Shown piece after piece: positions 13,416 to 58,572 of a stretch of 64,000 nucleotides of DNA. The notes beneath the pieces were generated by a model. That model saw only the letters and a program-made list of their open reading frames with translations. It was not told the DNA's origin and did no database searches. Every line of letters starts with the position of its first letter. Positions within the stretch are counted from its first letter, which is position 1. Origin of the DNA: Candidatus Coatesbacteria bacterium (GTDB lineage: Bacteria; RBG-13-66-14); assembly GCA_014728225.1 (NCBI GenBank), contig WJLX01000003.1, positions 14,815 to 78,814 of the forward strand, in the 5' to 3' direction. Position numbers and translations under genes: made by a program.

Positions 13416-13488
13416 GATCAACCCGACCGCGGACGAGACCTTTGAAAAACCGCCGAGTCTGCGGCGGATGCTTAGGCCCGACGAGCGG

Positions 13489-13572
13489 CCGGAACCGGCA
13501 CGGTTTTTGCATCTCGGCGACCGTTGGAGCGAGGATAACGGTCCGCCTCCGCAAAAACCGTGCCGGTTCCGG
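13489..13572. repeat. Palindromic intergenic element, copy 1 (inner 22-bp IRs; extended imperfect palindrome about 13437..13623)
   Basis: CCGGAACCGGCACGGTTTTTGC, then core ATCTCGGCGACCGTTGGAGCGAGGATAACGGTCCGCCTCC, then GCAAAAACCGTGCCGGTTCCGG. Outer arms GACCTTTGAAAAAC ... GTTTTTTCAAAGGTC. The track mis-reads it as a small ORF. Confidence 0.85.
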
Positions 13573-13704
13573 CCGCTCATCAGCCTGAGGTTGCCGCCGG
13601 GCGCTCCGGTTTTTTCAAAGGTCTCGTCCGGGCGTTCCCTACCCGGCGCCCCCCCCTTTTGCTACAATACGGGTGAGAGAACCATCCAACAGGGAGGCAG
13701 GGCG

Positions 13705-14376
13705 ATGCGTAAGGTAACGGCGGTCCTTATCTGCCTGGCCGCGGTCTGCGGCGCCGGTTCCCGGGGCGGCGGACGGGCCGATCTGCACGACGCCGTCGTC
13801 GTATTTCTCGGCGCGTCGATCACCGAGGTCTTCTACTATCCGACGGAGGGGCAGTTCTTCCCGGACTACGACTTCCACAAGATTATCGAGTTCGGGCCGG
13901 ATAAACAGTCTGTCTTCGGGGACATCGCCGCCCTGGAGCCGGACATTGTGGTCTTCAAGGAGTGCGGGGCCTATTTCGACGAGGGCGGCGATACGGACAT
14001 GCCGGCGATACAGGGCTTCATGGAAGACATCGCCGATTTCTGCATCTCGATCGACGCCGTGCCGGTACCGGCGACAACCCTGCCCATCGATGTCGGTTAC
14101 GGCGGTCATACCCAGGCCCAGCTAGAGGACATCATCGAGTTCGATAACTGGGTGCGCGGTTGGTGCGACGCCGAGGGGTGGGCATGCATGGATTACTATA
14201 GCTGGATCGCCGACGGTGACGGTCAACTGCCGACGGCCTACCACGACGGCGACGGTCTGCACCCCAATCAGGAGGGCTACGACGTTCTCGGTCCCCACGT
14301 CATTCCCACCCTGGAGGGTGTCGCCTGGGCGGTCGTGCCGGTGAGTTTCGGCCGGATCAAGGCTCTGGGCCGCTGA
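13705..14376 (+). CDS. SGNH/GDSL-family hydrolase lipoprotein
   Basis: AGGGAGG RBS. Lipoprotein signal LAAVCG. Block I VVVFLGASIT (GDS-like Ser) and block V DGLHPNQEGY (DxxH). The track ORF 13414.. has a false N-terminal extension across the repeat. Confidence 0.7.
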   Translation: MRKVTAVLICLAAVCGAGSRGGGRADLHDAVVVFLGASITEVFYYPTEGQFFPDYDFHKIIEFGPDKQSVFGDIAALEPDIVVFKECGAYFDEGGDTDMPAIQGFMEDIADFCISIDAVPVPATTLPIDVGYGGHTQAQLEDIIEFDNWVRGWCDAEGWACMDYYSWIADGDGQLPTAYHDGDGLHPNQEGYDVLGPHVIPTLEGVAWAVVPVSFGRIKALGR

Positions 14377-14493
14377 ACACACGGTAGTGCCGCTCGTTGA
14401 CGTAACTCGTTCTAGAGCGGGGCATGGACTAGCTCGCCTCGACTGTCGAGCAGCGTGTTCGCTCAAACTATAACTTGTTTCGGAGGTGCCCCA

Positions 14494-15051
14494 ATGCCTG
14501 TTTCAATCGTCAGCGGCGCGCTCAGGCGGCGTGTCGAATCCCTGGTGTCCGAAGACGAGCTGTCAGCAGTCGAGTTGATCCAACGCTTCCTGGACCTGTT
14601 GGGTCCGGAATTGGACGTCAGCCGGGCCTGCTTCAACGTCAAGCGCAACCGTGTCTATACGACGGAGCTGGAGTGGTTGGCCGCCGGCGTCAAGAGTTCC
14701 CTGGGCGAGAAGGTCTCGGCGCGGATCATCGAGAGCTTGGTGGCCGATGACATCCGGGAGTTGAACAAGGACACGGCCAAGGAGCTGCTGCCACCGGGAC
14801 TACGGTTGATCTCGGGCTCGGTGCTGGGCATCCTCGAGGTGCTGCAGCGTCTGGTGGCCATCGTCGCCGGGCCGATCCGCTACCGCGGCGAGCTGGTGGC
14901 CGTGGTCTCCTTCGATATCTGCAAGGAGCGCAAGGCCTCGGCGGGCTGGTCGGGGCGCAAGCTCAACGCCGTCGGCGCATTGATCCAGCGCTTCAACAGC
15001 GCCTTGGAGCGCGAGAAGGATCTGCTTGGCGAACCGCCCTTCATTCAATGA
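14494..15051 (+). CDS. Hypothetical protein (possible GAF-like small-molecule-binding fold)
   Basis: GGAGGTG RBS 5 nt before the ATG at 14494 (MPVSIVSG..). No strong family motif. Confidence 0.4.
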   Translation: MPVSIVSGALRRRVESLVSEDELSAVELIQRFLDLLGPELDVSRACFNVKRNRVYTTELEWLAAGVKSSLGEKVSARIIESLVADDIRELNKDTAKELLPPGLRLISGSVLGILEVLQRLVAIVAGPIRYRGELVAVVSFDICKERKASAGWSGRKLNAVGALIQRFNSALEREKDLLGEPPFIQ

Positions 15052-15128
15052 CATGACGGAGTCGACCGCCATTGTCCCGTCCGGCGACCTTTGAAAAACA
15101 GCAGGTGCGCACCGGTGAGCCCAGGCGG

Positions 15129-15212
15129 CCGGAACCGGCACGGTTTTTGCATCTCGGCGACCGTTGAAGCGAGGATAGCGGTTCGCCTCCGCAAAAACCG
15201 TGCCGGTTCCGG
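15129..15212. repeat. Palindromic intergenic element, copy 2 (extended palindrome about 15085..15271)
   Basis: Same 22-bp inner IRs and core as copy 1 (core variant ...CGTTGAAGCGAGGATAGCGGTTCGCC...). Outer arms CGACCTTTGAAAAACA ... GTTTTTCAAAGGTCG. Confidence 0.85.
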
Positions 15213-15334
15213 CCGGTCGTTGGACCGAGCCGGCCCCCCCGCAGGGCGCTCCGGGTGTTTTTCAAAGGTCGCCGTTATCGCCAACAGGCCGGGTCGCGCG
15301 ACCCGGCCTGTTGGCGCAGTGGCAGACTCGGTGT

Positions 15335-15889
15335 TCAAGCGTCCCGCGCCGTATAGTACTCCTCGGCCAGGATGCCCATCAGGTGTTCGTCGTGCCAGGC
15401 TCCGGTGTACCAGTGGGCCCGGCGGGCCACGCCTTCGTGGACGAAGCCGCAGTCCTCGTAGACCTTGGCGGCCCCGGCGTTGTGGGCGTAGTAGCGCAGC
15501 CAGACCCGGTGCAGATTGAGCACATCGAAGGCGTAGGCCAGGGTCAGCCGGACGGCCTCGCTGCCGTAACCCTTGCGGCGCATTTGCGGCGGACCGATGA
15601 AGATGCCGAATTCGGCGTGGCGGTCGATGTCATTGACCCGGTGCAGTCCGGTGTTGCCGATGAGGGCGTCGTCGACGAGGCGGCGGACGCCGAAGACGAT
15701 GTCGCCGCGCTTGTCCAGCGTGTCCAGCCATTCCCGTTCGGCCATCGTCGTCAGCGGGCGTTGGATCATCAGGTTCTCGCGCACGCCGGGGGCGTTGAGC
15801 CAGCGGACGTACAGCTCGAGGTCGGCCTCGTCCACGGGCGAGAGAAACACCTGTTCACCGACGAGGAAGCGGGCTCGGGGTTCGTTCAT
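15335..15889 (-). CDS. GNAT-family N-acetyltransferase (RimJ/RimL-like)
   Basis: GNAT motifs: FGIFIGPPQMRRKGYGSEAV (acetyl-CoA-binding R/Q-x-x-G-x-G/A) and a C-terminal YEDCGFVHEG. Overlaps the nnr stop by 4 bp. Confidence 0.8.
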   Translation of the reverse strand: MNEPRARFLVGEQVFLSPVDEADLELYVRWLNAPGVRENLMIQRPLTTMAEREWLDTLDKRGDIVFGVRRLVDDALIGNTGLHRVNDIDRHAEFGIFIGPPQMRRKGYGSEAVRLTLAYAFDVLNLHRVWLRYYAHNAGAAKVYEDCGFVHEGVARRAHWYTGAWHDEHLMGILAEEYYTARDA

Positions 15890-17436: not shown

Positions 17437-17585
17437 GCGTTCCTCCGACGGTTTCTCCTCGATTGTCATTTTAACAGGGCTGTCCATTCGCCGCCAGCGT
17501 TGCACTGTTTCACCGGTATCTGCGCGGCCCGTTGCGTGTAGATGACCCTGTTGGGCGGGGCGTGGGATGAATCCCCCGACCTCGT

Positions 17586-17827
17586 CGCGGGCTGGATTAC
17601 AATCCCGCCCCTGCAGGGGCGCGTCGCACGCCATCGAGAACCCCGTAGGAGCGGCTGTCCCCAGCCGCCCGGTGTTCATAACCTCAGACGGGTGCGAACC
17701 GCCGAAAACAGAGGATCGGCGCTTTTCCCGCCCGCGGTCGTCAACCGAGGACCTCGGGCGGGAAGCTGGTGCCGGTGCTGCTCCGCAGCATTGGAGTTAC
17801 GACGGCATCGTAACTCCGGCCCGGCGG
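17586..17827 (+). repeat. Conserved structured non-coding module, copy A2
   Basis: Aligns with 7877..8120 and shares the hairpins GGGC[GT]GGATT..AATCCCGCCC, [CG][AT]GG[GA]GCGGCTGTC.CCAGCCGCCC, TGCTGCT[TC]CGCAGCA and GAGT(T)ACGA...TCGTA(A)CTC. It abuts the IS1595-like remnant on its right. Confidence 0.45.
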
Positions 17828-17847
17828 CGCCGGCAGCGAAACTAGCA

Positions 17848-18396
17848 GGGAGCATCACAGGAGTTGAACATCAGCTGTTGCAGTTGGGTTCTTCCAGCGG
17901 CGTGAACGGGTCCGTCAACCCGCCAGCGACGCGGCGGGCAATGTGGCGGGGCGGAGCGGATCGCGGGAGCGGCGCGCCGAGGGACGTCAAAAGGCGAGGG
18001 TCGCGGCAAGCCGTTCAAGCGTCGTCCCCGGGGTGCCGCAACGCGCCGCCGCCGGAAAAAACGCGGCGAGACAGCCTGTCTGTTGCGCCTCGGTGTCCCG
18101 ACCGTCCGAGCCGCCGCTCGCCGGGCCGCGCTGGACCCGACCAGCTACACCGCTACGCCGACGGCCGGCGGGTCTATAAGAAACTGTAAATCAACGGCTT
18201 CCACCACGGGGCCTCAATGACGACAAGACCCCGGTCGATGGCCGGCGACGGCAAACAGCCGAGCAGAGCTTCGGCCTCTTCATCCCTGAAAGATCGTTCC
18301 GCTTCAACCCTCGAGACGCCGATAACACGCTATCCATTCTCAGGAGCAGACTTCGCGCTTGGTCATAGCTCGGTCATAGTTAGGTGATAATCCCCC
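17848..18396 (+). mobile_element. Degenerate, internally deleted IS1595-family element (miniature, non-autonomous)
   Basis: Aligns with 50272..50938. Encodes a zinc-ribbon/HTH N-terminal fragment and a frameshifted C-terminal fragment (...YADGRRVYKKL*INGFHH...ERSFRFNPRDADNTLSIL). Right end GGTGATAATCCCCC. Inserted about 30 bp from the tRNA-Asn 3' end. Confidence 0.6.
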
Positions 18397-18426
18397 GAAA
18401 AAAACGGGACCCCCGCGGGGGTCCCG

Positions 18427-18501
18427 TGGCTCCTCGGGCCGGACTCGAACCAGCAACCAATCGGTTAACAGCCGATTGCTCTACCATTGAGCTACCGAGG
18501 A
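18427..18501 (-). tRNA. tRNA-Asn (anticodon GTT)
   Basis: Minus-strand sequence TCCTCGG-TA-GCTC-AATGGTA-GAGC-A-ATCGG-CTGTTAA-CCGAT-TGGTT-GCTGG-TTCGAGT-CCGGC-CCGAGGA-G-CCA folds as a cloverleaf. Anticodon loop CTGTTAA gives GUU. CCA is encoded. Confidence 0.85.
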
Positions 18502-18581
18502 TCGTGAATTTCGCCGCCGTCGGTGACGACGGAGGAGTATTGTGCCAGAGGGCGGCGAAGCTGTCAAGGACGGGGGAGGCT

Positions 18582-20256: not shown

Positions 20257-20264
20257 CGCTGGGG

Positions 20265-22927: not shown

Positions 22928-23646
22928 GTGTTCGGACCGCTACCTGTCTGTAACCTGCTGTTAACATCCGGGATGGGCTGTGATATTCTGCCACGAAAAG
23001 GCGATCAACAAGTGGCGGAAAACCGAGCAACCGACCGGCCCAGTTGTTGCCCAAAATGTAACCATAGAACGCACTATAAGTTGGCCGACGGCAGATGTAA
23101 ATGCAAGAATTACGGAAAGAATTATGCCCATCGACCAAGATATGCAAAGCTATCTTGCAAACCTATCTCAAGAGAAGCAAAAAGAGATAGCTCGCTTATT
23201 ATGGCTGCGCGTTCCGACGGCCGCCGCGGCCAGGGCGGTCGGCGTATCCGCTAAAACAGCAGCCAAAGGTGCAATCGACTTACAATCGACTTACAATCGA
23301 CTTACAATCGACCAAGGGAGCGCCGCGCCGCCCCTCGCCAGGCCGCGCTCGACCCGACCGTCTACCCCGCTATGCCGACGGCCGGCGGGCCTGGACGAAA
23401 CTGTCGCTCAACGGTTTACACCACAAGCGGATCAAGCATGACAAGACACGGGTTGACGGCAAGCAACGGCCTCGAGAGCTCCCGGGGCTACGCCAAACGA
23501 CGGCTAAAGGCCGCTCACGGCGGCTTAAAGGCAACTTCAGGCGCTGTATCAGAGAAGGGTCGTTCCGCTTCAAGCATCGTGACGACGAAAACGCGCTCGA
23601 CTACCCGCAGGATGCACTGCTCAATTGGTCCGCTCAGGTTACATGA
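22928..23646 (+). mobile_element. Low-GC IS1595-family transposase remnant (frameshifted N-terminal zinc ribbon/HTH plus C-terminal DDE tail); boundaries approximate
   Basis: CPKCNHRTHYKLADGRCKCKNYGKNY zinc ribbon, then frameshift, then LRVPTAAAARAVGVSAKTA HTH, then 11-bp tandem repeats, then YADGRRAWTKLSLNGLHHKRI...FRFKHRDDENALDYPQDALLNW. GC content is markedly lower than surrounding genes. Confidence 0.6.
23273..23312. repeat. Tandem repeat, about 3.5 copies of the 11-bp unit ATCGACTTACA
   Basis: CAATCGACTTACAATCGACTTACAATCGACTTACAATCGACC sits at the junction between the N- and C-terminal transposase fragments. Confidence 0.7.
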
Positions 23647-24265: not shown

Positions 24266-24821
24266 TGTTTATCACGGAGGGCCATCCACCGGGCCGGCAT
24301 GCTTCTTGCATTCCGCGGGCCTTCCTTCCCGGAAGGCCCGCGGGCAACAAGCCCGCCGGCCCTCTATGACTCGTCGCTGCCCCCACCGCTGGTCGCCGTA
24401 TGGAGACGTTGCGGGGAGGCGTTGCGGGATAGCGGCTTGAGGACAAGCAGGGAGGCATCTCGCCGCTTCTGGACCATAGCGCCGGGAGTGGAGACCGTTG
24501 TTTCAAATCGCGGGGAGGGCTGCTGGGGGACGTCGTCGTCGTCGGTTTTACCGACGGCTTTCGACAGCGGGCGATTATCAGTTCTAACTGGTTGGTGTTG
24601 AGTGGTATAGGGCTAGATGCTCGCTGATGGGATCAGCAGTGCCGGCAGTCGAGCATACAGGTCCGGGTTGTTGGGTTCGGTTTGACGACATTGACGCCCC
24701 TCGAGCTCTGCCGCAACAACACAAATCAAGGGGCTTGACCGGTTTGCTTCCGGCTGCCTTTCTAGGAACGGATCATAGAACTGGATTGGCCCGTTGCCGT
24801 TACGTGATCCCATAAAGAGAA

Positions 24822-24845: not shown

Positions 24846-24869
24846 TCGTTCGTAGTAGTTGATTGCGGT

Positions 24870-29895: not shown

Positions 29896-30066
29896 GCGTT
29901 TACCCCGTTGACAGGTGAGGCCGCCACCGTCGACGGCGGCCGGTTTATCGCTGGACGATTAGTTCCCCGGTATTATACCGTATTTTTACCCTTTTTGTTT
30001 CCATCGCCGCCGCCGTCCGTCAACACGACCCACCCGCAGGTCCGGGCGGCCCGAGCCGCCGCGCCG

Positions 30067-30151
30067 CCGGAACCGGCACGGTTGTTGCATCTCGGCGCCC
30101 GTGACGGATACTGCTAACGGTCCGCCTCCGCAACAACCGTGCCGGTTCCGG
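30067..30151. repeat. Palindromic intergenic element, copy 3 (variant; extended palindrome about 30011..30218)
   Basis: Inner IRs CCGGAACCGGCACGGTTGTTGC ... GCAACAACCGTGCCGGTTCCGG, with a symmetric T/A change on both arms. Outer arms CCGCCGTCCGTCAACACGACCC / GGGTCGTGTTGACGGACGGCGG are unrelated to the other copies but still self-complementary. Confidence 0.8.
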
Positions 30152-30265
30152 CGGCGTGTTTCCCGGTCCGTGGTTGGTGAGGTGACGGGATTGCGGGGTC
30201 GTGTTGACGGACGGCGGGGTCGCTGGACCCCGCCGTGTTTAGCTGTTGTTCGGGCGTGCTGGGGA

Positions 30266-33978: not shown

Positions 33979-34066
33979 GGGTAAAAGTATAACAGAGTTG
34001 CCGGGTTATCGTCTTCGGGCGGGAGACCTTTGCCGAACACCCCGCACGCTCCACAGCCGCCGGCCC

Positions 34067-34150
34067 CCGGAACTGGCACGGTTTTTGCATCTCGGCGACC
34101 GTTAGCACGGCTGTAACGGTCCGCCTCCGCAAAAACCGTGCCAGTTCCGG
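34067..34150. repeat. Palindromic intergenic element, copy 4 (extended palindrome about 34017..34212)
   Basis: IRs CCGGAACTGGCACGGTTTTTGC / GCAAAAACCGTGCCAGTTCCGG with a symmetric C-to-T/G-to-A change. Outer arms GGGAGACCTTTGCCGAA / TCGCGCAAAGGTCTCCC. Lies in the divergent rluB-crcB intergenic region. Confidence 0.8.
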
Positions 34151-34337
34151 GGGCCGGGGCGGGGCTGGTTGACGGCCGCGGGCGAGTCGCGCAAAGGTCT
34201 CCCGCCCGGGGCGAAACCGCGGGATGGATTGGTCTGGGTATCGCCTTGCCCCGTGGTCGACGGCGATGCTATAGTCGCCGGAAACCCGCCAAGGCTTGCC
34301 GGTGGTTTGCGTATTCCGTTTGACGAGGAGCATATCT

Positions 34338-37035: not shown

Positions 37036-37127
37036 GCTTTAGAGTCTGTTTCAGCGGGAGTCCACTCCGACGGATCGGCTCCGGGGTGAAGGCGGCGCAT
37101 GGTTGGAGAGTTTTACGGCAATCGAAC

Positions 37128-37157
37128 CAGCCGGGCCCCGGGGCCCGGCTGGTTGGC
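37128..37157. repeat. Perfect 30-bp palindrome AACCAGCCGGGCCCCGGGGCCCGGCTGGTT
   Basis: 13-bp perfect arms around CCGG, intergenic. Confidence 0.6.
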
Positions 37158-39060: not shown

Positions 39061-39229
39061 GGCACCTCATCCTCGGCTGGCGGACATTTTGAACAGTGTA
39101 GCATCGCCGCCGGCCCGCGGCAACCCCCGTTCACAGGCTTCGATCACTCCGCTTACTCGACACCGGCACCCACGTCGGCCCCTGGAAAAACAGCCCTCGC
39201 CAACCGCGACGAGGACCGCCGCCCTGCGG

Positions 39230-39313
39230 CCGGAACTGGCACGTTTTTTGCAGCTCCTCACCCGCACGGCCGACGGTAACCTTACGCTATCGCAAAAAAC
39301 GTGCCAGTTCCGG
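39230..39313. repeat. Palindromic intergenic element, copy 5 (divergent core; outer IRs 39179..39357)
   Basis: IRs CCGGAACTGGCACGTTTTTTGC / GCAAAAAACGTGCCAGTTCCGG with a different core. Perfect outer IR CCCCTGGAAAAACAGCC / GGCTGTTTTTCCAGGGG. Confidence 0.8.
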
Positions 39314-39381
39314 CCGCGCGGGTCCGCCGGGGTGGTGCAAAGGCTGTTTTTCCAGGGGAAGTGGAGCCGCCGCACAATCGG

Positions 39382-43169: not shown

Positions 43170-43283
43170 GCCCCGCGGCTTTCCCGCTCCGACCAAACCC
43201 GTCGCCGGGGCGCAAAAACGCCGCTCCGGGAGACCGTTGAAACCCCTGCGGCGCTGATCACCCGCACCGGATAACCACGCCCG

Positions 43284-43367
43284 CCGGAACCGGCACGGTT
43301 TTTGCATCTCGGCAACCGTTGGAGTAAAGATAACGGTTCGCCTCCGCAAAAACCGTGCCGGTTCCGG
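43284..43367. repeat. Palindromic intergenic element, copy 6
   Basis: Canonical IRs. Core shows a compensatory A/T pair (GGCAACCGTT ... AACGGTTCGCC). Outer arms GGGAGACCGTTGAAACCCCT / AGGGGTTTCAACGGTCTCCC. Confidence 0.85.
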
Positions 43368-43574
43368 CGGGCAGGTTGCTGGGTCGTTGTCGGGAGGGGT
43401 TTCAACGGTCTCCCGGAGGGTGTGTGAAGCCCGGTGCGAGGCGGATTAACAACCGCGCAGGCTGGGCCGCTATTCCAGACTAGTCGCCGATGGCGGGTTT
43501 GAAGCCCCCGATGCTGGGCGATATGGGAAAACAGCGGCCCGCGGGCCGCTGTTTACTGTTGTGCACGATCGAGG

Positions 43575-44345: not shown

Positions 44346-44764
44346 CTCGGGCGCCCTTTCGGTGGTTCGGCGGGGAAACGGGAACCGGAAGCCGCACAGC
44401 GGCGTATCTTCCCAATTCCCCTTTTATGGGAGTATAGCAAACGGGTCGTCCGTGGTAAACCGTCAGCCGTCGGCTCACTCGGGGCGGTGCATAATGAGCG
44501 CCCGGCGTCATCAAGCTTGTCAATCTGACGTAAAAGCCCTGTAAAGACAGGTGTTTACGAAAGTCAACACTCGATCCGTGGTCAGTTGTATGAAAAAGTT
44601 AACGCTCAACCAGCCATCGGCGGGACACGGAAAAAAAGTGATCGTTGCAACACAATGAATCTGGACGACCTACGAAATGACTAGTGACGATTATCACTGG
44701 TTGGCACGATTGTTGCAGTGTTATAACCGTGGGTCGAACACATCAACATCGGAGGTTTCAGGGT

Positions 44765-48004: not shown

Positions 48005-48073
48005 TTGGGGTGGTCCGCCACGGTGGCCGACCTCTGAAAAACGGCCGGCGACGACTGCTGGACCCCGCCCGCG

Positions 48074-48157
48074 CCGAAACCGGCACGGTTTTTGCATCTC
48101 GGCGACCGTTGGAGCTGGTATAACGGTCGGCCTCCGCAAAAACCGTGCCGGTTTCGG
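48074..48157. repeat. Palindromic intergenic element, copy 7
   Basis: IRs CCGAAACCGGCACGGTTTTTGC / GCAAAAACCGTGCCGGTTTCGG with a symmetric G-to-A/C-to-T change. Outer arms GACCTCTGAAAAACGGCC / GGCCGTTTTTCAGAGGTC. Confidence 0.85.
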
Positions 48158-48286
48158 CGCGGGCTATCCGGCTCTTGCGCCGGGTCGGCAGGGCCGTTTT
48201 TCAGAGGTCGGCTTGCGGCGTCGGAATAATAGAACGGACGGGTCCGGCGGACCCGTCCGTTGCGTTCAGGTGTTTCAGCGATTTGA

Positions 48287-50104: not shown

Positions 50105-50271
50105 CGGGTGTTCCTTTGCTGTTGGTCGGCCGATATTGCTGACGGTGATTTACCTTTCGGGCATATTAGCCCAGCACTTCTGGTGTGTCAAGGCGGGGGC
50201 AATAGCGAACACCGGCGGCCCCAATCCCGCCGTCCGGAACGGTTCCGGTGACAAGGAAGACGAAGGTTGTT

Positions 50272-50938
50272 GGGGATTAAGGAAGGGATCATCACAGGAG
50301 ATGAACATCAGCTATTGCAGTGGGGTTCTTTAGCGGTGTGAACGGGTCTGTCAGCCCGCCACCGACGAGGGGGGCAATGTGGCGGGGAAGAGCGGGACGG
50401 GGGAGCGGCACGTCAGGTGTCCAAGATGCAATTACCGCTGCGGCAAGCTGTTCAAGCGTCATCCCCGGGGGCGTCGCAACGCGCCGCCGTCGGCAAAACG
50501 CGGCGAGACAGCGCGTCTGTTCCGGCTCGGCGTCCCGACCGTCCGAGCCGCCGGGGATTTGGGCAGCCGGCGCAATACGGCATATCGCTACTAGAAGCTA
50601 ATCCGCCGGCGCCGCACCGCCGCTCGACAAGCCGCGCTGGACTCGATCGTCTACACCGACGGCTGTAAGGCCTATAAGCAACTGTCACTCAACGGCTTCC
50701 ACCACAAACGCATCGACAACCAACAGGATTTCGCCGATGGACGGACACATAGCAACGGGATCGAGAACTTCCGGGGCGACGCCAAGCGCCGCCTAAAAGC
50801 CACCTGGAGGATTCAGGCTTAACTTCAGACTCTTGATCACTGAAAGGACGTTCAGCTTCAGCCATCGAGACGGCGAAAACGTGCTAAACCACCTCGGGAG
50901 CATACTGCGCGCTTGTTCATAATCAGGTGATAATCCCC
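50272..50938 (+). mobile_element. Miniature, internally deleted IS1595-family element with terminal inverted repeats GGGGATTA ... TAATCCCC
   Basis: Encodes the zinc-ribbon/HTH N-terminus CPRCNYRCGKLFKRHPRGRRNAPPSAKRGETARLFRLGVPTVRAAGDLG. This is followed almost directly by the C-terminal ...YTDGCKAYKQLSLNGFHHKRIDNQQDFADGRTHSNGIENFRGDAKRRL..., then a frameshift, then ERTFSFSHRDGENVLNHLGSILRA. About 90 aa carrying the first catalytic D are missing. Confidence 0.7.
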
Positions 50939-51013
50939 TAAGGAAAAGGGGCGACTGAGGACAGTCGTCCCTGTGGTTGGGTTTCCTTCACCGCCAAAGC
51001 GCCGGCGGCCGGG

Positions 51014-52936
51014 CTAGAAGGCGAGCTCGACCCCCAGAACGAAGCGGCGCGGTCGGCGCGGGTAGTTACGGTCGGCGTAGTCGTTGCCGAAGGCGGCGGG
51101 GACATCGGAATCGGTCAGGTTTTCCAGGGCGCCGAAGATGGTCAGGTGCTCGCCGAAGGCGTAATCCAGCAGGACGTCGACGTCGTAGGCCGCCGGGAGT
51201 CGCTTGGTGAGCATGCCGACGACGGGATATTCGCTGTAGTCGGGGTAGTAGGCCCGGCGCTCGGCGGTCCAGTTCAACTCCAGGTCGACGAAGGAGCAGA
51301 CGGCCAGGCGGGCCTGGAGTTGGTGCCGAGGTACGAAGGCCGCGCGGCGTTCGACGACTTGGAAGACGTCGCCGCTCTCCCAGTCGGAATAGACCAGCTC
51401 GCTGTGACGCTGGACGGCGTCGGTGTAGGTGTAGAACAGGCGCAGGGAGCTCCACCGCACTCCGGCGGTGGCGCCGAGGACGACCTGCTCGTTGACATTG
51501 ACCGGTCGCCAGCGGCCGTCGGTGTCGGGTTGCCAGGCGATGAGGTCCGTCGTCTCGCGGTAGAAACCGCCCAGGGTCAGAGCCGCGCCGCCGCCCAGCT
51601 CGGGCAGGTCGACGGTCAGGTCGAGCTGGCGGGCCGTTTCCGGTTCCAGCTCGGGATTGCCGGCGTCGGGCCAGTAGAGGTCGTTGAGGGTCGGAGCGGC
51701 GAAGCTCAGCCCGCCGGCCAGGGCCGCCTCTAACCAGTCGCCCGTGTAGCGCAGCACGACGCCCGGTGACCAGTGCAGGCCGAAGTCGGTGTGTCTGTCC
51801 AGGCGCAGGGCGGCCTCGAGGGCTACGGGAGACCAGTCCGCCCTGACGCGCAGCCGGCCGCCGAGGTTATCCACCGCGGGTCGCCAGGTGGTGATCGTGG
51901 TGGTGCCGGCGCCCCCGGGATCGAAGGGTTCGCTCCAGCGCGTACTCTCGAGCTCGGCCTCGAGGTCGTCGGTGCGGTAGTCGAGAGCGCCCGAGACGCT
52001 CAACCAGTCCGTCGCCCGCCAGCTCGCACCCAGGGAGCCGAAGTAGGTCGTGGTGAGGTAGCGGCTTTCGTCGTGATAAATGCCACCGAACTCGTACCAC
52101 TGGAGGTAGTCCAGCTCCAGTTCGCTCCAGCGGAAATCAAGGCTCAGCTCCAGCCTCCCCAGCTCCAGCCCGGCGTGAATACCGATATAGGTCTCGTGCT
52201 CCTCCTGGCGGTCGAGCAGGCTGCTGACCTCGTCGTCACCGAAGGTCGGGATGTCGTCGACGGCCGGTCGCGGTCCGGGAACACCCTGGTCCAAGCCGCG
52301 CATCCCCACCAGACCGCGCAGCAGCAAACCGCCGTCCTCGTATTCCAGGCCGACCCGACCACCCGGGCGCTCACAGTCGGAATTGGGCCGCCGGCCGGCG
52401 TACTCCTCCAGCCAGGCGTCGACGATCAGGTTCGGCTCGCCGGTGCGTTCGCTGAAACCGAAGTGCTGTTCGCCGTTTTCACCGACGGCCGCCGAGAACG
52501 AGGTCCGCTCCGAGTTGGTGACGATGTTGATTACCCCACCGACGGCGGCGCCGCCGGCCAGGTTGCCCGCCGCGCCCCGACTGATCTCGATCCGCTCGAC
52601 TATCCTCAAGGGGACGGCGTTGAGGTCGACGGTGCCGTTGACGGCGGAATTCAGCGGCACGCCGTCGAGGAGTACGCGCACCTGGCGGCTGGGCGCGCCG
52701 CGCAGGCTGACCGTGGCCAGACCCCCGGCGACGCCGGTTCGCTGGATCAGGACGCCGGGAACGCCTTCCAGCACGTCGGTCAACTCCCGGGCCCCGGCGG
52801 CGGCGAGCTCGTCGCCTTCGATGACGAACCAGTCCAGCTCCTCGAGGCCACCGAGGTAGCGGGTGCTGACCTCGAGAGCCGCAGCGGCCGTCGTCAGCGT
52901 GATCAACAACAGGATGAGGGCTGGACGGTTGCGCAC
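51014..52936 (-). CDS. btuB: TonB-dependent outer-membrane receptor, BtuB-like (vitamin B12 transporter)
   Basis: Signal peptide, plug domain (DVLEGVPGVLIQRTGVAGGLATVSLRGA) and a C-terminal beta-barrel ending in F. A cobalamin riboswitch lies in its leader. Confidence 0.7.
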   Translation of the reverse strand: MRNRPALILLLITLTTAAAALEVSTRYLGGLEELDWFVIEGDELAAAGARELTDVLEGVPGVLIQRTGVAGGLATVSLRGAPSRQVRVLLDGVPLNSAVNGTVDLNAVPLRIVERIEISRGAAGNLAGGAAVGGVINIVTNSERTSFSAAVGENGEQHFGFSERTGEPNLIVDAWLEEYAGRRPNSDCERPGGRVGLEYEDGGLLLRGLVGMRGLDQGVPGPRPAVDDIPTFGDDEVSSLLDRQEEHETYIGIHAGLELGRLELSLDFRWSELELDYLQWYEFGGIYHDESRYLTTTYFGSLGASWRATDWLSVSGALDYRTDDLEAELESTRWSEPFDPGGAGTTTITTWRPAVDNLGGRLRVRADWSPVALEAALRLDRHTDFGLHWSPGVVLRYTGDWLEAALAGGLSFAAPTLNDLYWPDAGNPELEPETARQLDLTVDLPELGGGAALTLGGFYRETTDLIAWQPDTDGRWRPVNVNEQVVLGATAGVRWSSLRLFYTYTDAVQRHSELVYSDWESGDVFQVVERRAAFVPRHQLQARLAVCSFVDLELNWTAERRAYYPDYSEYPVVGMLTKRLPAAYDVDVLLDYAFGEHLTIFGALENLTDSDVPAAFGNDYADRNYPRRPRRFVLGVELAF

Positions 52937-53119
52937 GGCGATCCTCCCCTTTGTCGGTCCTGGATGCTATAATTCACCGTTGAGACACAGCAAACCCCGC
53001 CCGTGGGGCCCGTTGGACGGCGTGATCGTTCACACCGGCCGGACGCGGGGCGGGGGGAGGATCGGGGTAACATGATACCGGTCATGCCAACCTCCTCGGA
53101 TCGCGAAGGGGGTGGGGAC

Positions 53120-53280
53120 CGGAGCCGGGTATCCTGGCTGACGACGCGGCGTCGTTGACGCCCCGGAACGGGCGCCTTCCCGGAAGCGAAGCTCCAGTGG
53201 CGTCTGCCCGTTCCTCGTCGAACACAGTGGCGCGACCGCGGCGGATTCTAACCGCCTTCCCCGGGTCGGCTTAGGCCGAC
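53120..53280 (-). ncRNA. Cobalamin (B12) riboswitch
   Basis: Minus-strand read: CCGGGGAAGGCGGUUAGAAUCCGCCGCGGUCGCGCCACUGU ... GCCACUGGAGCUUCGCUUCCGGGAAGGCG ... GUCAGCCAGGAUACCCGGC. This matches the cobalamin riboswitch core (GGGAA..GGUG.AA.UCC..GCGGUC.CGCCACUGU) and the B12-box (AGYCAGGAnAC). It lies about 190 nt upstream of the btuB-like start. Confidence 0.75.
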
Positions 53281-53356
53281 CATCCGGTCAGATATGGGAG
53301 ACCATTATCCCACCGCGGTCAATCATCGTCAAGGCCCCCCTGCAGAAGGAGGATCA

Positions 53357-54169: not shown

Positions 54170-54244
54170 CGACACGCGCCGTCCGCGCCACGCCGCGACC
54201 CCGGCCGGAGAACGGCCGAGGCGCCGCCTGTGCAGTTTCGCGCC

Positions 54245-54329
54245 CCGGAACCGGCACGGTTTTTGCATCTCGGCGACCGTTTGGACGGCTGAAAACGGTC
54301 GGCCTCCGCAAAAACCGTGCCGGTTCCGG
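54245..54329. repeat. Palindromic intergenic element, copy 8
   Basis: Canonical 22-bp IRs. Core ATCTCGGCGACCGTTTGGACGGCTGAAAACGGTCGGCCTCC. Confidence 0.85.
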
Positions 54330-54484
54330 GGCGTGGTCGGTCGAGGGGGGGACGGGTCGTGGTGCTGTGGCCGGGGTCGCGGCGGGCCGAGCTGTGGGTC
54401 TGGATCGGCGAAATGGCGACGGATTGTGGATAAACCGACCGGGGAGCCGCGGCTCCCCGGTCGGTTCGTTGGGTAACGGTGGGT

Positions 54485-56710
54485 TTACTTGGTCTGGACC
54501 TTGCTGTAGTGGCTGCGGTCGACGAGCTTCTTGGGCAGGAACCTGCCCCAGTCGCGGTCCTCGAGGGGCGGGATCGGCTCCTCGGGATCGGCGGCGGCGA
54601 GGGCGTAGCGGTCGTCGTCGTCGACGGCCAGCCCCAGGGCGGCCCCGCAGCGCGGGCAGTAGACGCCGTCGACGTCGCCCTTGCCCCCGGTGCGCAGCTC
54701 GACGTCGCGGAATTCGGCCCGCAGGGTCTTGTTCCAGTCGGTCTTGTGGCCGCATTTCTCGCAGGCCACCTCGTGCTGGGGTTTCTTGCGTTTCTTCTTG
54801 TCGGACTTGGCGGCCTCGGCTTCGGCGACGCTCCTGCCGCGCACGCGGGCGGGCTTTTCCTTCTCGCTCTTGGCTGGAGCGGCGTCACTGATGCCGTGCT
54901 CCTTCTGGTAGACCTTGAGTAGCCAGTACTGCTGGGCCACGGTCAACAGGGAGTTGAACAGCCAGTAGAGCACCAGGCCCGAGGGCATCTGGTAGAACAG
55001 CACGCCGAAGATGATCGGCATGAACTTAGTGAAGCCGGTGGTCTTGCCGCCGCGCTTGGCCGTCATCCGGCCCTGATACCACATCACGGCGACCATCAGC
55101 AGGGGCAGCAGGTTGAAGTTGGGGCCGATGAGGGGGATGTTGACGCCCCAACTGAACAGGGCGTCGGGCAGGGTCAGGTCGCTGATCCAGAGGAAGGCGG
55201 CCCCGCGTAGCTCGACGGCGTTGCGCAGCGCGCCGAACAGGGCGATGAAGACGGGCATCTGCAGCAGCAGGGGCAGGCAGCCCCCCAGGGGCGAGACTTT
55301 GTTCTTCTTATAGAGGGCCATGATCTCTTCGTTGGCCCGCTGCTGGTCGTTGGCGTAACGCTCCTTGATGGCCTCGATCTTGGGCTGCAGCATCTGCATG
55401 GCGATCGAGGAGCGGAAGCTCTTGTTGGTCAAGGGCATCAGCACCAGCTTGATGGCGATGGTCATCAGGATGATCGCCAGGCCGTAATTGCCGAGGAAGC
55501 TGTAGAACAGCTTCAGCAGCTTGAGCAAGCCGATGGAAACCGGAGCGAGGAAGTTCCAGCCGAAGTCGGCGACCTCGCCCATCCCCAGGGCGTCGAGGGC
55601 GTCGTGGTACTTGGGACCGATGTAGGTCAGGAAGCGCCGACGGAACAGGCCGCCGTCGGAGGCTTGAGCGGTGAGGGTGGTGCGGGCGATCTTCGGCGGC
55701 GCGGTCATCTCACGCAGGGCCACGCTGCCGAAGAAGGGCCCCTCGCCGGTCGGTTTGAGCGCCAGGGTGAAGTGGTTGTCGTTGACGGCGATGTGGCCGA
55801 TCTTGTCGGCGTCCTCGCTCTCGTCGTCGTTGTCGCCGGCGGACTCCTCGAACTTGTCACCGCCGACGTCGGCGATGGTGGTCAACTGGCCGCGGACGGC
55901 GTTGGTCATGTCGCCCTGGCGGTCCAGACCCGTACCCAGCTCGAGGACCACGTTGCGCGCCGTGGCCGGGACGCCGGCGACGGAAACGTCGAGGTAGCCG
56001 ACGTAGGAGTCGCCGCGGAAGGTGAAGCGCTTGGTGACGGTGACCTGGCCCGCCGTGGCCGTGTAGGTGATCGTCAGCTCGTCGTCACCGGAGACCCGGT
56101 ACTCGCCCGGCGGCCGGTCGGCGTTATACTCGGTCCAGGCTGTGAAGCCCTCGACGGTGATCATCCCCGGGTAGTACTCGCCGGGGATCTTGTTGAACAG
56201 GGTCAGGTGGCTGCCGTCGTAATCCTTGTGCTCGAGCAGGGTGACGCTCTTGTAGGCGCCGCCGAGATCGGACAGGCGGATGACCGCCAGGTCCGTGCGC
56301 ACGGTGACCAGGTCCTCGGATTCCTCGGCCAGTTGCCCGTAGCCGGCGGAGGCGGCCGCCGTCTCGAGCCGCTGGGGCTCCCCGCCGGCGTCGGCGGGAG
56401 CTGCGTCCGCGCCGGGTTCGGCGGTGTCGGCTGATTCTGTGGGCTCGGCGGCGGGGGCCGCGGCCCCTCCGGCTTCGGCCTCGGCGGCCAACTGGACGTC
56501 CTCGCCCTCGACGATCTCCTCCTCGTCGTCGGAGAAGATCAACTGCACCACGACCAGGGCCACGATGGCCAGCACGCCGACGATGATCAACCGCCAGGTA
56601 GATTTCTTGTCACTGTCCGAATTGGCGGGTTCCAACGGCACTCCCTCGGCTGGGGTTAACAACAACGTATTCTCGGCTGGCATTTTACCGACCCCGTCGG
56701 GGCCTGTCAA
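54485..56710 (-). CDS. yidC: Membrane protein insertase YidC with extended N-terminal region and a C-terminal zinc-ribbon tail
   Basis: Conserved YidC/Oxa1 core (LMPLTNKSFRSSIAMQMLQPKIEAIKERY...YKKNKVSPLGGCLPLLLQMPVFIALF). C-terminal ~110 aa contain CEKCGH...CPRCG. Start is either TTG 56710 or ATG 56683. Confidence 0.8.
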   Translation of the reverse strand: MTGPDGVGKMPAENTLLLTPAEGVPLEPANSDSDKKSTWRLIIVGVLAIVALVVVQLIFSDDEEEIVEGEDVQLAAEAEAGGAAAPAAEPTESADTAEPGADAAPADAGGEPQRLETAAASAGYGQLAEESEDLVTVRTDLAVIRLSDLGGAYKSVTLLEHKDYDGSHLTLFNKIPGEYYPGMITVEGFTAWTEYNADRPPGEYRVSGDDELTITYTATAGQVTVTKRFTFRGDSYVGYLDVSVAGVPATARNVVLELGTGLDRQGDMTNAVRGQLTTIADVGGDKFEESAGDNDDESEDADKIGHIAVNDNHFTLALKPTGEGPFFGSVALREMTAPPKIARTTLTAQASDGGLFRRRFLTYIGPKYHDALDALGMGEVADFGWNFLAPVSIGLLKLLKLFYSFLGNYGLAIILMTIAIKLVLMPLTNKSFRSSIAMQMLQPKIEAIKERYANDQQRANEEIMALYKKNKVSPLGGCLPLLLQMPVFIALFGALRNAVELRGAAFLWISDLTLPDALFSWGVNIPLIGPNFNLLPLLMVAVMWYQGRMTAKRGGKTTGFTKFMPIIFGVLFYQMPSGLVLYWLFNSLLTVAQQYWLLKVYQKEHGISDAAPAKSEKEKPARVRGRSVAEAEAAKSDKKKRKKPQHEVACEKCGHKTDWNKTLRAEFRDVELRTGGKGDVDGVYCPRCGAALGLAVDDDDRYALAAADPEEPIPPLEDRDWGRFLPKKLVDRSHYSKVQTK

Positions 56711-56797
56711 CTCGTGGGCCGCCGAACCGCAGACAAAGGCCCGACGGGGATGTTATGATGGACTCGAACAAACGACAACCCCCCAAGGGAGACCACC

Positions 56798-57421
56798 GTG
56801 GCCCGCCCCCGCGTCATCGTCGTCGGACCGCTGCAGATGAACTGCTACCTCTGGCCCTGCGCTCCGGACAAGTGTTTGGTCGTCGATCCCGGCGCCGAGC
56901 CCGGACGGATCGTCGACGAGCTCGAAGGACTCGGCCTGACCCCGGCGGCCGTCGCCCTGACCCACGGCCACCCCGACCACCTGGGCGCCGCCGGGGAGCT
57001 GGCCCGCCGCTACGGCGTTCCCGTCTACCTCCAGCCCGACGACAACCTGTGGATCGAGCTGCTCAAGAGCGACTGGATGCCCGATTTCGGCCCGCGGCCC
57101 GACTACTGGCCGGAATTCACCGCCTACACCGACCTGCTCGACTATCCGGAGTTGAAACTGCAGATCCTGCCCCTGCCCGGACACTCCCCCGGCTCCGTGG
57201 TGCTCTACAGCGTCCGGGACGCCTGCGCCTGCGTCGGCGACGTCCTCTTCGCCGGCGGGATCGGGCGCACCGACCTGCCCGGCGGCGACGAGGAGCAGCT
57301 CTTCCGCGGCCTGCGGGAGACCCTCTTCGAGCTGCCGCCGTCGACGGAGATCCTCCCCGGCCACGGACCCGCGACCAACCTGGCCCGGGAACGGGCCGTC
57401 AACCCCTTTGTTACGTGGTGA
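56798..57421 (+). CDS. MBL-fold metallo-hydrolase (glyoxalase II-like)
   Basis: LTHGHPDH (HxHxDH) motif, a later LPGHSPGS, and C-terminal PGHGP. Confidence 0.75.
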   Translation: MARPRVIVVGPLQMNCYLWPCAPDKCLVVDPGAEPGRIVDELEGLGLTPAAVALTHGHPDHLGAAGELARRYGVPVYLQPDDNLWIELLKSDWMPDFGPRPDYWPEFTAYTDLLDYPELKLQILPLPGHSPGSVVLYSVRDACACVGDVLFAGGIGRTDLPGGDEEQLFRGLRETLFELPPSTEILPGHGPATNLARERAVNPFVTW

Positions 57422-58245
57422 GAGGGCTACCGCTAATCGCCGTGCTTCTGGCCGCTCTCCTCGTCGGTTGCGCCGAGCGTCGACCGGCGCCTCCGGTCGG
57501 CTGCGAGTTCGTCAAGAGCCTGCCCAGCGAGGATTGGCTCGCCCTGGCCCTGCGTCTCTACGCCGATCCCCACCGGGCGGGGGAGTTGGCCGCCCTCAAC
57601 GCCGCTGAGACCGACCATTCACCGCCGCTCCTGATCATCGCTCGCCGGGGCGTTACTCTGCAGCAGCCACCTCTCCACGAGCGCCTCGATGCTCCGGCCG
57701 CTACCGCCCTGGAAAACGCGGTTCTGCGCCTCTGGGCCCGCGACGACACCGCCGGCGCCCAGAACCTGCTGCGCGCCGCCCTGGAGCGCGAGCCCCTCGA
57801 CCCCCACGGGCGCTACCTGCTGGGCCTGGTGCACGCCCGCCGCGGTGAACTGCATCGCGCCGTCGCCGAGCTGGAAAGCGCCCGCTACCTGGCCCCGACG
57901 GACGCCCGCCCCCACGCCACTCTGGCCCTCGTCAACGCCGAACTCGGCCGCTTCGCCCAAGCCCGCCGCTACGCCATTTCGGCTCTTCAGCTCGACTGGT
58001 ACGACTGGCGGTCGCACTACCTGATGGGTCTGCTCACCGCCGGCGACGACGAGCACCGCCTCGCCGAGGCCCACCTGTTCCAGGCCCTGGAGCTGGGACC
58101 GAGCTACGGCCCGGAGCGCGAGCGCATCCTCGAGCTGCTGTACCTGTTGCAGAGCGGCCACGAGCCCCTCGATCCCGCCTGGCTCTCCGGACGCCTGCCG
58201 CGACCCGATCCGCGCGGCGACGATTTCTACGATATCCGTCGTTGA
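57417..58245 (+). CDS. TPR-repeat lipoprotein
   Basis: GTG start overlapping the MBL stop (GTGA). Lipoprotein signal MRGLPLIAVLLAALLVGC. TPR-like helical repeats. The track ORF 56755..58245 is a long antisense-extended artefact. Confidence 0.5.
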
Positions 58246-58305
58246 CGCCGATTCGCCAATAGACGACACCGGCCCCGGGGCCGGTGTCGTCTTATCCCGA
58301 TGGTC

Positions 58306-58392
58306 TGGTGCCGAGAGCCGGACTCGAACCGGCACGGGGGTCAGCCCGGCGGATTTTAAGTCCGCTGCGTCTACCAATTCCGCCATCCCGGC
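58306..58392 (-). tRNA. tRNA-Leu (anticodon TAA)
   Basis: GCCGGGA-TG-GCGG-AATTGGTAG-ACGC...GCGGA-CTTAAAA-TCCGC, long variable arm, TTCGAGT T-loop, and encoded ACCA end. Anticodon loop CTTAAAA. Confidence 0.85.
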
Positions 58393-58488
58393 AGGTGGTG
58401 GCATTATAGTACCGGCGACGCTCCCGGCGCAAGCCGCCGCGACCGCCGCCCCGCCCGCCCGATCACCCGGATCGGGTCGAGACGGACC

Positions 58489-58572
58489 CCGGAACCGGCA
58501 CGGTTTTTGCGGAGGCCGACCGTTACAATCGCTCCAACGGTCGCCGAGATGCAAAAACCGTGCCGGTTCCGG
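58489..58572. repeat. Palindromic intergenic element, copy 9 (core in inverted orientation)
   Basis: Same IRs. Core is the reverse complement (GGAGGCCGACCGTTACAATCGCTCCAACGGTCGCCGAGAT). Confidence 0.85.

Follow-up and report, generated by a model that had tools for sequence, protein, structure and literature searches.

Short palindromic repeats of the repetitive extragenic palindromic (REP) type and of the REPIN (REP doublet forming a hairpin) type are common, and the selection that acts on their conserved ends is still a matter of debate. The Correia elements of Neisseria and the ERIC elements of enterobacteria are miniature inverted-repeat transposable elements (MITEs), short noncoding intergenic sequences with terminal inverted repeats that can contain promoter-like or protein-binding sequences and can fold into hairpins in transcripts. 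IS1397 and ISKpn1, which insert into loops of REP palindromic units, and terminator-targeting elements land in the loop or center of an existing palindrome and generate nested palindromes. Template switching in quasipalindromes produces mirrored changes that perfect an inverted repeat in one step, and loops between short stems can be inverted by the same process. REPINs have been described as conserved inverted ends around a length-conserved hairpin spacer, with compensatory changes and vertical persistence (PMC3116915, PMC3337134). For promoters of sigma-54 (RpoN), the consensus is tGGcacg at -24 and tTGCt at -12 (PMC4641369), and the sigma-54 holoenzyme sits inactive on its sites, many of which are not classical promoters (PMC4591121). 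Here, we describe a family of nested intergenic palindromes in a 64,000-nt stretch of the genome of an uncultured Candidatus Coatesbacteria bacterium (GenBank assembly GCA_014728225.1, contig WJLX01000003.1, positions 14,815 to 78,814; the whole stretch is called the window). The two 22-bp ends of each repeat match the -24/-12 consensus of sigma-54 promoters and face each other, an arrangement that is not described for this kind of repeat. The best reading, which we hold with moderate confidence, is that these are REPIN-like repeats whose ends dock sigma-54 RNA polymerase and whose symmetry is kept by hairpin-templated copying.

Each repeat has an inner unit, consisting of two inverted arms and a core between them. 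The arms were located by searching the window for CCGGAACCGGCACGGTTTTTGC with up to 3 mismatches, which gave 18 matches forming 9 inverted pairs, compared to 0 matches in 100 shuffled sequences. The arms of a pair are 40 or 41 bp apart, and the inner unit is 84 to 85 bp long. The copies are listed below.

13489 to 13572, plus strand: inner unit of copy 1; arms at 13489-13510 and 13551-13572, core at 13511-13550; the arms are inward-facing sigma-54-type -24/-12 motifs. The orthologous site in a sister species is L212 9772-9856.
15129 to 15212, plus strand: inner unit of copy 2; not present in the sister species; nearest to copy 1 in its core and in 8 nt of right flank.
30067 to 30151, plus strand: inner unit of copy 3; GTTGTTGC mirrored on both arms, canonical GTTTTTGC on both arms in the sister species.
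34067 to 34150, plus strand: inner unit of copy 4; arms with CTGG, giving a perfect TGGCACG; in a divergent intergenic region.
39230 to 39313, plus strand: inner unit of copy 5; arms CTGGCACGTTTTTTGC; divergent core.
43284 to 43367, plus strand: inner unit of copy 6; inverted and nonorthologous core at the sister-species site.
48074 to 48157, plus strand: inner unit of copy 7; arms CCGAAACC, mirrored and the same in the sister species.
54245 to 54329, plus strand: inner unit of copy 8; 41-bp core; identical in the sister species.
58489 to 58572, minus strand: inner unit of copy 9; reverse-complemented core; flanked by tRNA-Leu and tRNA-Cys; not present in the sister species.
63950 to 64000, no strand assigned: window part of copy 10; left outer arm GCGACCTTTGAAAACC (63950-63965) and left linker.

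The initial annotation, made from the letters of the window, had listed nine copies of a perfect 22-bp inverted repeat, and the arm search returned exactly the same coordinates for all nine. The arm changes it described as mirrored in copies 3, 4, 5, and 7 were indeed found on both arms, and the covariation it saw in the core stem of copy 6 is a real change from G-C to A-T. What it took for an additional partial copy at 63925 is no arm but a look-alike of 11 nt at 63936-63946; the genuine tenth copy has its left outer arm at 63950-63965 and its inner unit from 64001, one base beyond the window, where it is visible in the strain contig L015 at 5549-5632. The core hairpin that it assigned to every copy (GCGACCGTT/AACGGTC(C)GC) was present in 8 of the 9 and missing from copy 5, the core of which is divergent. 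Seven of the nine cores read ATCTCGGCGACCGTT, a variable loop of 10 to 13 nt, and AACGGTCSGCCTCC; in copy 3, the 5′ part is changed at two positions (GCGCCCGTG), and the core of copy 5 differs. The two sides of the core always differ, with TTGC-A at one arm and TTGC-G at the other. The core of copy 9 is reverse-complemented relative to the others and that of copy 10 is inverted too, leaving the same chromosomal orientation in 8 of 10 copies, a bias that is not significant. GC skew in the window tracks gene orientation and is uninformative about a replication-strand bias. There is about 1 unit per 6 kb in the window, which has a G+C content of 66.5%. Its glutamate dehydrogenase is listed at NCBI under a Candidatus Coatesbacteria MAG. 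The same DNA is found in independent NCBI, JGI, ENA, and Logan assemblies, and the repeats are therefore not an assembly artifact. Strains 99.3 to 99.8% identical to the window showed no changes within copies 1 and 2, and a pattern scan of a genome collection that did not include the source genome gave two single-copy loci only.

The conserved end of the inner unit reads C[C/T]GGCACGGTTTTTGC followed by A, which fits the sigma-54 -24/-12 consensus with the exact GG-N10-GC spacing; in TGGCACG-N4-TTGCW, the GG and GC are exactly 10 bp apart, and so they are in the arms. None of the 18 arms departs from TGGCACG-N4-TTGC at more than one position, and four match it fully. At this threshold, the window contains 20 such sites compared to 1.24 expected, and 18 of the 20 are the arms. 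The motifs of both arms point into the core, forming a face-to-face pair in each unit, with the two predicted starts about 16 bp apart. The chance of a random 22-mer containing GGCACG-N4-TTGC at the exact spacing was estimated at ~1e-5. Moreover, the seven variable arm positions in an alignment of 17 copies all fall outside GGCACG and TTGC, a placement with a chance of C(12,7)/C(22,7) = 0.005 in a sample whose metagenome copies had been picked by the exact arm pattern and whose unbiased part is the window and sister copies.

The other two sites of the window stand alone. The first, TTGGCACGATTGTTGCA, a textbook match, lies at 44701-44717 on the plus strand, 50 nt upstream of the ATG (44766) of a sigma-70-family gene with regions 2, 3, and 4 and a GGAGG ribosome site, and the sister species has exactly the same sequence there; the second is on the minus strand at 20752-20738. 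Read from its letters, the solo promoter in front of a sigma-factor gene suggests a cascade from sigma-54 to an alternative sigma factor. In a relative (L216), there is a gene for an NtrC-type activator whose domains are Response_reg, Sigma54_activat, and HTH_8. From the solo promoter and this activator gene, we infer a sigma-54 system in this genome.

Sigma-54-type motifs also turned up elsewhere. The arm 20-mer GGAACTGGCACGGTTTTTGC occurs exactly, once, and without a partner at L011 1479-1500 in a low-GC metagenome contig, just upstream of an open reading frame that was read by eye as flgJ/rod-binding-like; this is probably an ordinary flagellar sigma-54 promoter, although it may be a chance match. 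Some IMG/VR contigs (for example, L022 3218-3290, L031 3662-3735, and L028 277-339) carry arrays of TTGGCACG-N4-TTGC, alternating or in tandem and a few to tens of nucleotides apart. Paired motifs in viral contigs were far above the scrambled control, at 35 to 120 or more loci compared to 1. The scan found 35 convergent, 38 divergent, and at least 120 tandem loci, with 1 scrambled locus. Since all layouts are enriched in viral contigs, the convergent layout as such is not special, and a general architecture of convergent sigma-54 pairs was dropped as support.

Our chief ground for reading meaning into the sigma-54 resemblance is that sister families in this clade, including related species, keep the sigma-54 positions and little else. 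Those found are listed below.

L001 6945-7045: a 27-bp perfect repeat CCGCGGCGGCGTTGGCACGTTTCTTGC with the end ...GTTGGCACGTTTCTTGC and a 43-nt core; outer arms GCCGACCTTCGCC / GGCGAAGGTCGGC.
L222 5250-5362: GGCTTTGGCACGTTTCTTGC; core of 73 nt; enclosed by outer arms of 17 bp.
Window 24291-24362 and 8002-8073, and L003 5940-6020: a smaller and partly degenerate family, GGCCGGCAYNNTTCTTGC.

In the smaller family, the arms GGGCCGGCAYNNTTCTTGC carry a degenerate sigma-54-like motif and flank a perfect GC-rich hairpin of about 30 nt. A contig from the same sample as L222 (L018) ends inside the same arm type. The families have GGCAC(G)-N4-TTGC and a nested palindromic arrangement in common; they differ in the core, in the spacer bases, and in the arm upstream of the motif.

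The inner units also show a strong pairing constraint. In every one of the 17 aligned copies, each of the 22 arm pairs is paired across a spacer of 39 to 41 bp, and all seven variable arm pairs changed on both sides, with the exception of one U.G. The palindrome extends 3 to 7 copy-specific base pairs past the 22-mer in every copy; flank positions -1 to -5 are paired in 71 to 100% of the 17 copies, with up to five pair types. The observed level of covariation was reached by none of 500 shuffles, and slid controls fell to 32 to 45% paired. Of the initial annotation, the view of a dispersed intergenic palindromic family whose symmetry is maintained is supported by this pairing constraint.

Compared to the sister species, six mirrored double substitutions were found (copy 1 flank, 13485/13576; copy 3 arms, 30084/30134; copy 4 outer arms, 34031/34193; copy 5 outer arms, 39192/39345; copy 7 outer arms, 48034/48204; and the core stem of copy 10). 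Transversions, which have no wobble intermediate, account for two of the six. Four mirrored pairs fell in the divergence comparison, where we estimate that independent change would give about 0.1. A further example is the hairpin loop beside copy 8 (~54208-54213, stem GGCCG/CGGCC), which is flipped, reading GAGAAC in the window and GTTCTC in the sister species. The mirrored substitutions and the loop inversion favor one-step copying between the arms of a folded single strand over stepwise compensation, and template switching would be the origin of the mirrored changes. On the strand reading TTGCA-TCTCGG, mismatches in well-paired regions were nine G.T and no A.C, a small count in an element whose core can flip; as far as the letters go, this suggests that one particular strand folds.

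The inner unit sits within a second, outer pair of arms that lie 135 to 165 bp apart in each copy. Such arms were found for every copy, as expected from the longer imperfect palindromes with copy-specific outer arms noted initially. The symmetry score between left and right flanks was 16 to 27 within window copies versus 6.4 ± 3.9 between copies. The outer modules, which have no assigned strand, are as follows.

13430 to 13630: copy 1; arms at 13430-13449 and 13611-13630 (CGGACGAGACCTTTGAAAAA, 100% complementary).
15082 to 15274: copy 2; arms at 15082-15110 and 15246-15274; present alone in the sister species as a bidirectional terminator with A-run, GC hairpin, and T-run.
30000 to 30227: copy 3; arms at 30000-30031 and 30196-30227; noncanonical CCGCCGTCCGTCAACACGACCC.
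34017 to 34207: copy 4; arms at 34017-34033 and 34191-34207; mirrored T/C and A/G change from the sister species at 34031 and 34193.
39179 to 39358: copy 5; arms at 39179-39200 and 39337-39358; mirrored change from the sister species at 39192 and 39345.
43224 to 43418: copy 6; arms at 43224-43247 and 43395-43418, 24 nt and 100% complementary.
48026 to 48212: copy 7; arms at 48026-48046 and 48192-48212; mirrored TCT/AGA (TTT/AAA in the sister species) at 48034 and 48204.
54186 to 54389: copy 8; arms at 54186-54213 and 54362-54389, 82% complementary; without A/T runs.
58440 to 58614: copy 9; CGACCGCCGCCCCGC / GCGGGGCGGCGGTCG; empty in the sister species, which has a stem of 13 bp and a loop of 44 nt here.

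The outer hairpin is often a bidirectional intrinsic terminator with an A-run, a GC hairpin, a T-run, and conserved GACCTTTGAAAAAC arms. A good example is the empty module of the sister contig L212, which has a GC-rich hairpin with an A-tract on the 5′ side and a T-tract on the 3′ side and gives one hairpin whichever strand is folded, the A-run being paired with the U-run (z of -2.4 and -2.3). In copy 1, each side of the module has a local hairpin and a T-run reading outward, and a similar arrangement was read in about half of the unit halves. A/T runs are found in copies 1, 2, 5, 7, and 10, are weak in copy 6, and are lacking in copies 3, 4, 8, and 9. A simple terminator scan called only copy 1, with both of its terminators. 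In an Rfam search of the window, only tRNAs and a cobalamin riboswitch passed the gathering score, and a permissive search of the unit gave only subthreshold matches to generic long hairpins (miRNA precursors). The riboswitch (71 bits) is at 53112-53295 on the minus strand, upstream of a TonB-dependent receptor gene (51014-52936, minus strand). Perfect palindromes of 30 to 34 bp at 37125-37154, 54433-54466, and 58261-58292, near gene or tRNA ends, are probably terminators.

As to gene context, 4 of the 10 sites lie between convergent genes, 5 between tandem genes (including the tRNA pair), and 1 between divergent genes. The initial statement that the copies lie mostly between convergent genes was therefore too strong; its placement of one copy in a divergent region (copy 4) and one between tRNAs (copy 9) was right. 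In the tandem cases, core orientation agrees with gene direction in two and disagrees in three. The GDH and SurA genes have their own strong terminators before the element.

Comparison with sister-species contigs that are fully syntenic with the window (L212, L218, L220, and L224; 9 to 16% intergenic divergence) showed how the repeats have been inherited. The orthologous site was filled for 8 of the 10 copies (1, 3, 4, 5, 6, 7, 8, and 10) and empty for copies 2 and 9. Empty site 2, between convergent genes, consists of the outer module alone, that is, GGCGACCTTGGAAAAAC, a GC-rich hairpin, and GGGGGTTTTTCAAAGGTC; at empty site 9, a stem of 13 bp closes a loop of 44 nt. Within the window, no outer arms without an inner unit were found, and empty modules were seen only in the sister species. 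The inner unit therefore sits at the apex of a hairpin that is able to exist without it, which is why it is flanked by inverted repeats. The indels between filled and empty sites are ~105 to 107 bp, which exceeds the 84 bp of the unit by about 21 nt. These additional nucleotides are all on the right at site 2, where they are bounded by CGG/CGG, and are split 8 + 14 at site 9, so that the idea of a circular permutation can be noted from these two events only. Neither site showed a clean target-site duplication; there is at most a CGG microhomology at junctions that are ambiguous. Either gain or loss could underlie the difference at the two sites. A copy-paste origin is suggested for copy 2, the core of which is nearest that of copy 1, 1.6 kb away, and the first 8 nt of the right flank of which (CCGGTCGT) equal the copy 1 flank of the sister species. 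Core orientation is kept at 7 of the 8 shared sites. The exception is site 6, where the sister core is inverted and is nearest the sister's copy 1 rather than copy 6 of the window, indicating that it was replaced and not merely flipped.

Divergence between the window and the sister species was 1.4% in the arms, 4.5% in the outer arms, and 7.4% in the flank extension, compared to 7.8% in conserved core parts, 13% in the core loop, 17.7% in the linkers, and 11.5% in other intergenic DNA. This means that the copies are old and that the 22-mer has remained nearly invariant while unconstrained parts drifted. In these respects, the units behave like REPINs, being old, mostly vertically inherited, hairpin forming, and rarely copied.

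Taken together, these observations can be accommodated as follows. The repeats are lineage-specific nested intergenic palindromes, the inner unit of which occupies the apex of a larger and older hairpin. Each 22-bp end has the sequence of a near-consensus sigma-54 -24/-12 promoter aimed into the core and would serve as a docking site on which sigma-54 RNA polymerase binds stably and stays silent unless an enhancer-binding protein acts. That units last in terminator hairpins may be due to the hairpin and T-run at their side, which would halt any unit-started transcript within ~100 nt and leave the neighboring genes undisturbed; units are probably tolerated there because anything they start is soon stopped. 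Mirror symmetry would be kept by copying one arm from the other in folded single-stranded DNA through template switching, and the same process may invert or replace the core. New copies would be rare and would arise by copy-paste of ~105 bp into the loop of another hairpin.

Several points weigh against docking of sigma-54 polymerase on the units. First, no rpoN was seen, and searches for the RpoN box and the GAFTGA motif were empty in the first ~200 kb of loci and in later sister and relative loci; the sole evidence for an activator comes from L216, a more distant relative that lacks the elements. Second, most arms have C instead of the consensus T at -26. Third, the placement is not that of promoters upstream of a gene or operon with an activator site. 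Only one copy lies in a divergent promoter region, the other sites are the convergent and tandem ones given above, core orientation is unrelated to the neighboring genes, and no conserved upstream activator site was identified. Fourth, about 1 unit per 6 kb would mean many hundreds of strong sites per genome, which would titrate sigma-54 unless titration is the function. Fifth, a perfect palindrome over 22 bp plus flank exceeds what sigma-54 binding needs, and the identity of the arms could come from conversion between copies instead of selection on each copy. Finally, predicted sigma-54-started transcripts fold no better than shuffled sequences (z of 0 to 0.45), and T-runs are missing in copies 3, 8, and 9.

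The rival that survives best, although we consider it doubtful, is that the repeats are ordinary REPINs or MITEs whose ends are sites for a transposase (a REP-associated tyrosine transposase [RAYT/TnpA_REP] or another hairpin-recognizing enzyme) and whose likeness to sigma-54 promoters is functionally meaningless. Architecture and behavior do match those of published REPINs, with inverted ends, a hairpin spacer, compensatory changes, asymmetric excised units, and vertical persistence. Presence and absence differ between sister species through asymmetric indels of ~105 to 107 bp, insertion is into hairpin loops, the mismatch bias (nine G.T versus no A.C) fits the folding of one particular single strand, and 8 of 10 cores have a common chromosomal orientation. 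A meaningless likeness has to face the ~1e-5 chance of finding GGCACG-N4-TTGC in a 22-mer and the retention of just those positions, and little else, in diverged sister families. Unlike REP sequences, the arms of families B and B′ contain no short palindrome within themselves. A clean target-site duplication is absent, and neither the ~75 kb available from this genome nor the syntenic contigs of the sister species contain a transposase gene.

That the product is RNA is unlikely. Under this explanation, each unit would encode two convergent sigma-54-dependent small RNAs of ~90 to 100 nt that start ~12 nt inside the core and end at the outer hairpin and T-run. Sigma-54-dependent small RNAs are known in other bacteria (Qrr and GlmY/Z), and the geometry fits, since an inward promoter is followed by a local hairpin and GTTTTTC on the far side; both terminators were called in copy 1, and the hairpin and T-run were read in about half of the halves. 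The transcribed part, however, is not conserved between families or in copy 5, L001, L007, and L009, copies 3, 8, and 9 have no T-runs, and the predicted transcripts are no more stable than shuffled sequence. A transcribed part that varies among families and folds like shuffled sequence makes a conserved small-RNA product improbable, and RNAs of this kind, with one arm each, could not be where the arms are constrained to pair.

Still less probable is a structured RNA or terminator, in which read-through transcripts fold into a long hairpin that stabilizes 3′ ends, aids termination, or is cut by RNase III. The strong covariation and the tolerance of G.U-type mismatches would suit an RNA, as would the location of units in terminator hairpins and, in 8 of 10 cases, 3′ of a gene, and the outer module does fold as a bidirectional terminator. 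However, the sequence of the 22-mer is conserved beyond what pairing requires (1.4% versus 11 to 18% divergence), core orientation disagrees with gene direction in 3 of the 5 tandem cases and agrees in 2, and nothing reads into the copy between divergent genes; conservation beyond pairing and the tandem cases in particular disfavor a role in read-through RNA. The initial annotation had offered the roles of bidirectional terminator and mRNA stabilizer. The first does not hold for the inner unit, because the terminator hairpin is retained without it in the sister species, and GDH and SurA carry their own strong terminators upstream of the unit. The second is not favored, given that core orientation is independent of the direction of the flanking gene and that copies also occur in a divergent region and between tRNAs. 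Finally, it is highly improbable that recombination between the 22-bp ends flips the 40-bp core as a switch that moves TTGCA, the better -12 element, and so determines which way the unit fires. In favor of a switch, copies 9 and 10 have inverted cores, site 6 differs in core orientation between the sister species, and one side is always TTGC-A and the other TTGC-G. Against it, the inverted core at site 6 is also nonorthologous and hence replaced, 7 of 8 shared sites keep their orientation, 40 bp falls below what known recombinase-mediated inversion needs, and no recombinase gene is nearby.

Returning to repeats whose ends dock sigma-54 polymerase, we tentatively suggest, as a possibility well short of an expectation, that they form a genome-wide array in which hundreds of perfect paired sites are kept in terminator hairpins for holoenzyme binding. 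Such an array could act as a sponge that sets the level of free sigma-54 or as paired roadblocks or insulators between transcription units, or it could be a repeat that persists or is copied via recruitment of a host sigma factor. It would then be a repeat family defined by a sigma-factor site, not by a transposase site. The conserved ends are readable here, as consensus sites for a known host protein, and these sites are all that is retained as the family diverges. If sigma-54 polymerase binds them, selfish-looking repeats would be linked to the transcription machinery, a large share of the cell's sigma-54 would be on repeats, and insulator, sponge, or promoter roles for such repeats could be put to a concrete test. 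The sister comparison in addition provides unusually clean cases of one-step mirrored substitution, hairpin-loop inversion, and insertion into terminator hairpins.

Other repeats were also seen in the window. The intergenic patch at 7842-8112 is wholly unlike the corresponding sequence of the strain contigs L003 and L005, which are otherwise 99.3 to 99.8% identical to the window and are identical directly to the right; the patch is 73% similar to 17588-17826 and is probably a recombination hotspot among dispersed repeats. Mosaic noncoding repeats at 17588-18408, 23021-23470, and 50284-50951 share 71 to 82% mutual identity in long gene-poor gaps with several sigma-70-like promoter hits, and L001 2144-2494 resembles them. 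In the sister species, short fragments of a DDE_Tnp_IS1595 transposase (L212 18526-18753; L224 371-592) lie in gaps that match the repeat-rich gaps of the window. Beside tRNA-Cys, a tandem duplication at 58705-58926 has a period of ~84 to 89 bp and 88% identity, and its copy number varies among the window, L015, and the sister species.

Among known systems, REPINs are the closest. First, both have two highly conserved inverted ends, here 22-bp arms that are 100% paired in 17 copies, around a spacer (39 to 41 bp) that is less conserved and keeps its length and hairpin capacity. Second, both show compensatory changes on the two sides, here the six mirrored substitutions relative to the sister species. 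Third, both are extragenic and dispersed at about one per several kilobases, are mostly vertically inherited with rare gain or loss, and seem to move as an asymmetric unit. The differences are that the ends here are a sigma-54 promoter consensus, that the units lie systematically at the apex of a second, larger hairpin, and that no GTAG-type 5′ tetranucleotide was noted. The window family (A) has a palindrome within its arms, AACCG-GCA-CGGTT with a 5-bp stem, which is broken in copy 5; the ends of families B and B′ have none (TTGGCACGTTTCTTGC). The Pfam hits, which covered ~75 kb from this genome and ~58 kb from the sister species, included no Y1_Tnp (RAYT) domain. Because a RAYT partner was searchable in ~75 kb only and the sister-family ends lack a palindrome of their own, membership in the REPINs is not claimed.

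The other systems match in part. The units share the short noncoding intergenic form, terminal inverted repeats, promoter-like sequences, and hairpins of the Correia and ERIC elements, but they are not classical MITEs because there is no direct target duplication; with a hairpin as the target, the repeats that flank them are inverted and not direct, and the copies are old, with saturated loops and nearly invariant ends, not the product of a recent burst. Insertion into an existing palindrome resembles that of IS1397 and ISKpn1, which are full insertion sequences with a transposase gene, whereas the insert here is 84 to 105 bp and noncoding. Quasipalindrome template switching shares the mirrored changes and inverted loops and is a mutational process, not an element, invoked here only for the upkeep of symmetry. 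Finally, the arms are like sigma-54 sites in carrying YTGGCACG-N4-TTGCW with exact spacing (PMC4641369), and binding of an inactive holoenzyme at many sites that are not upstream of genes (PMC4591121) would be a further likeness. They differ from such sites in being repeated at about 2 per 6 kb, always as convergent pairs 40 bp apart, and in forming perfect palindromes that include the nonconsensus positions within a repeat element.

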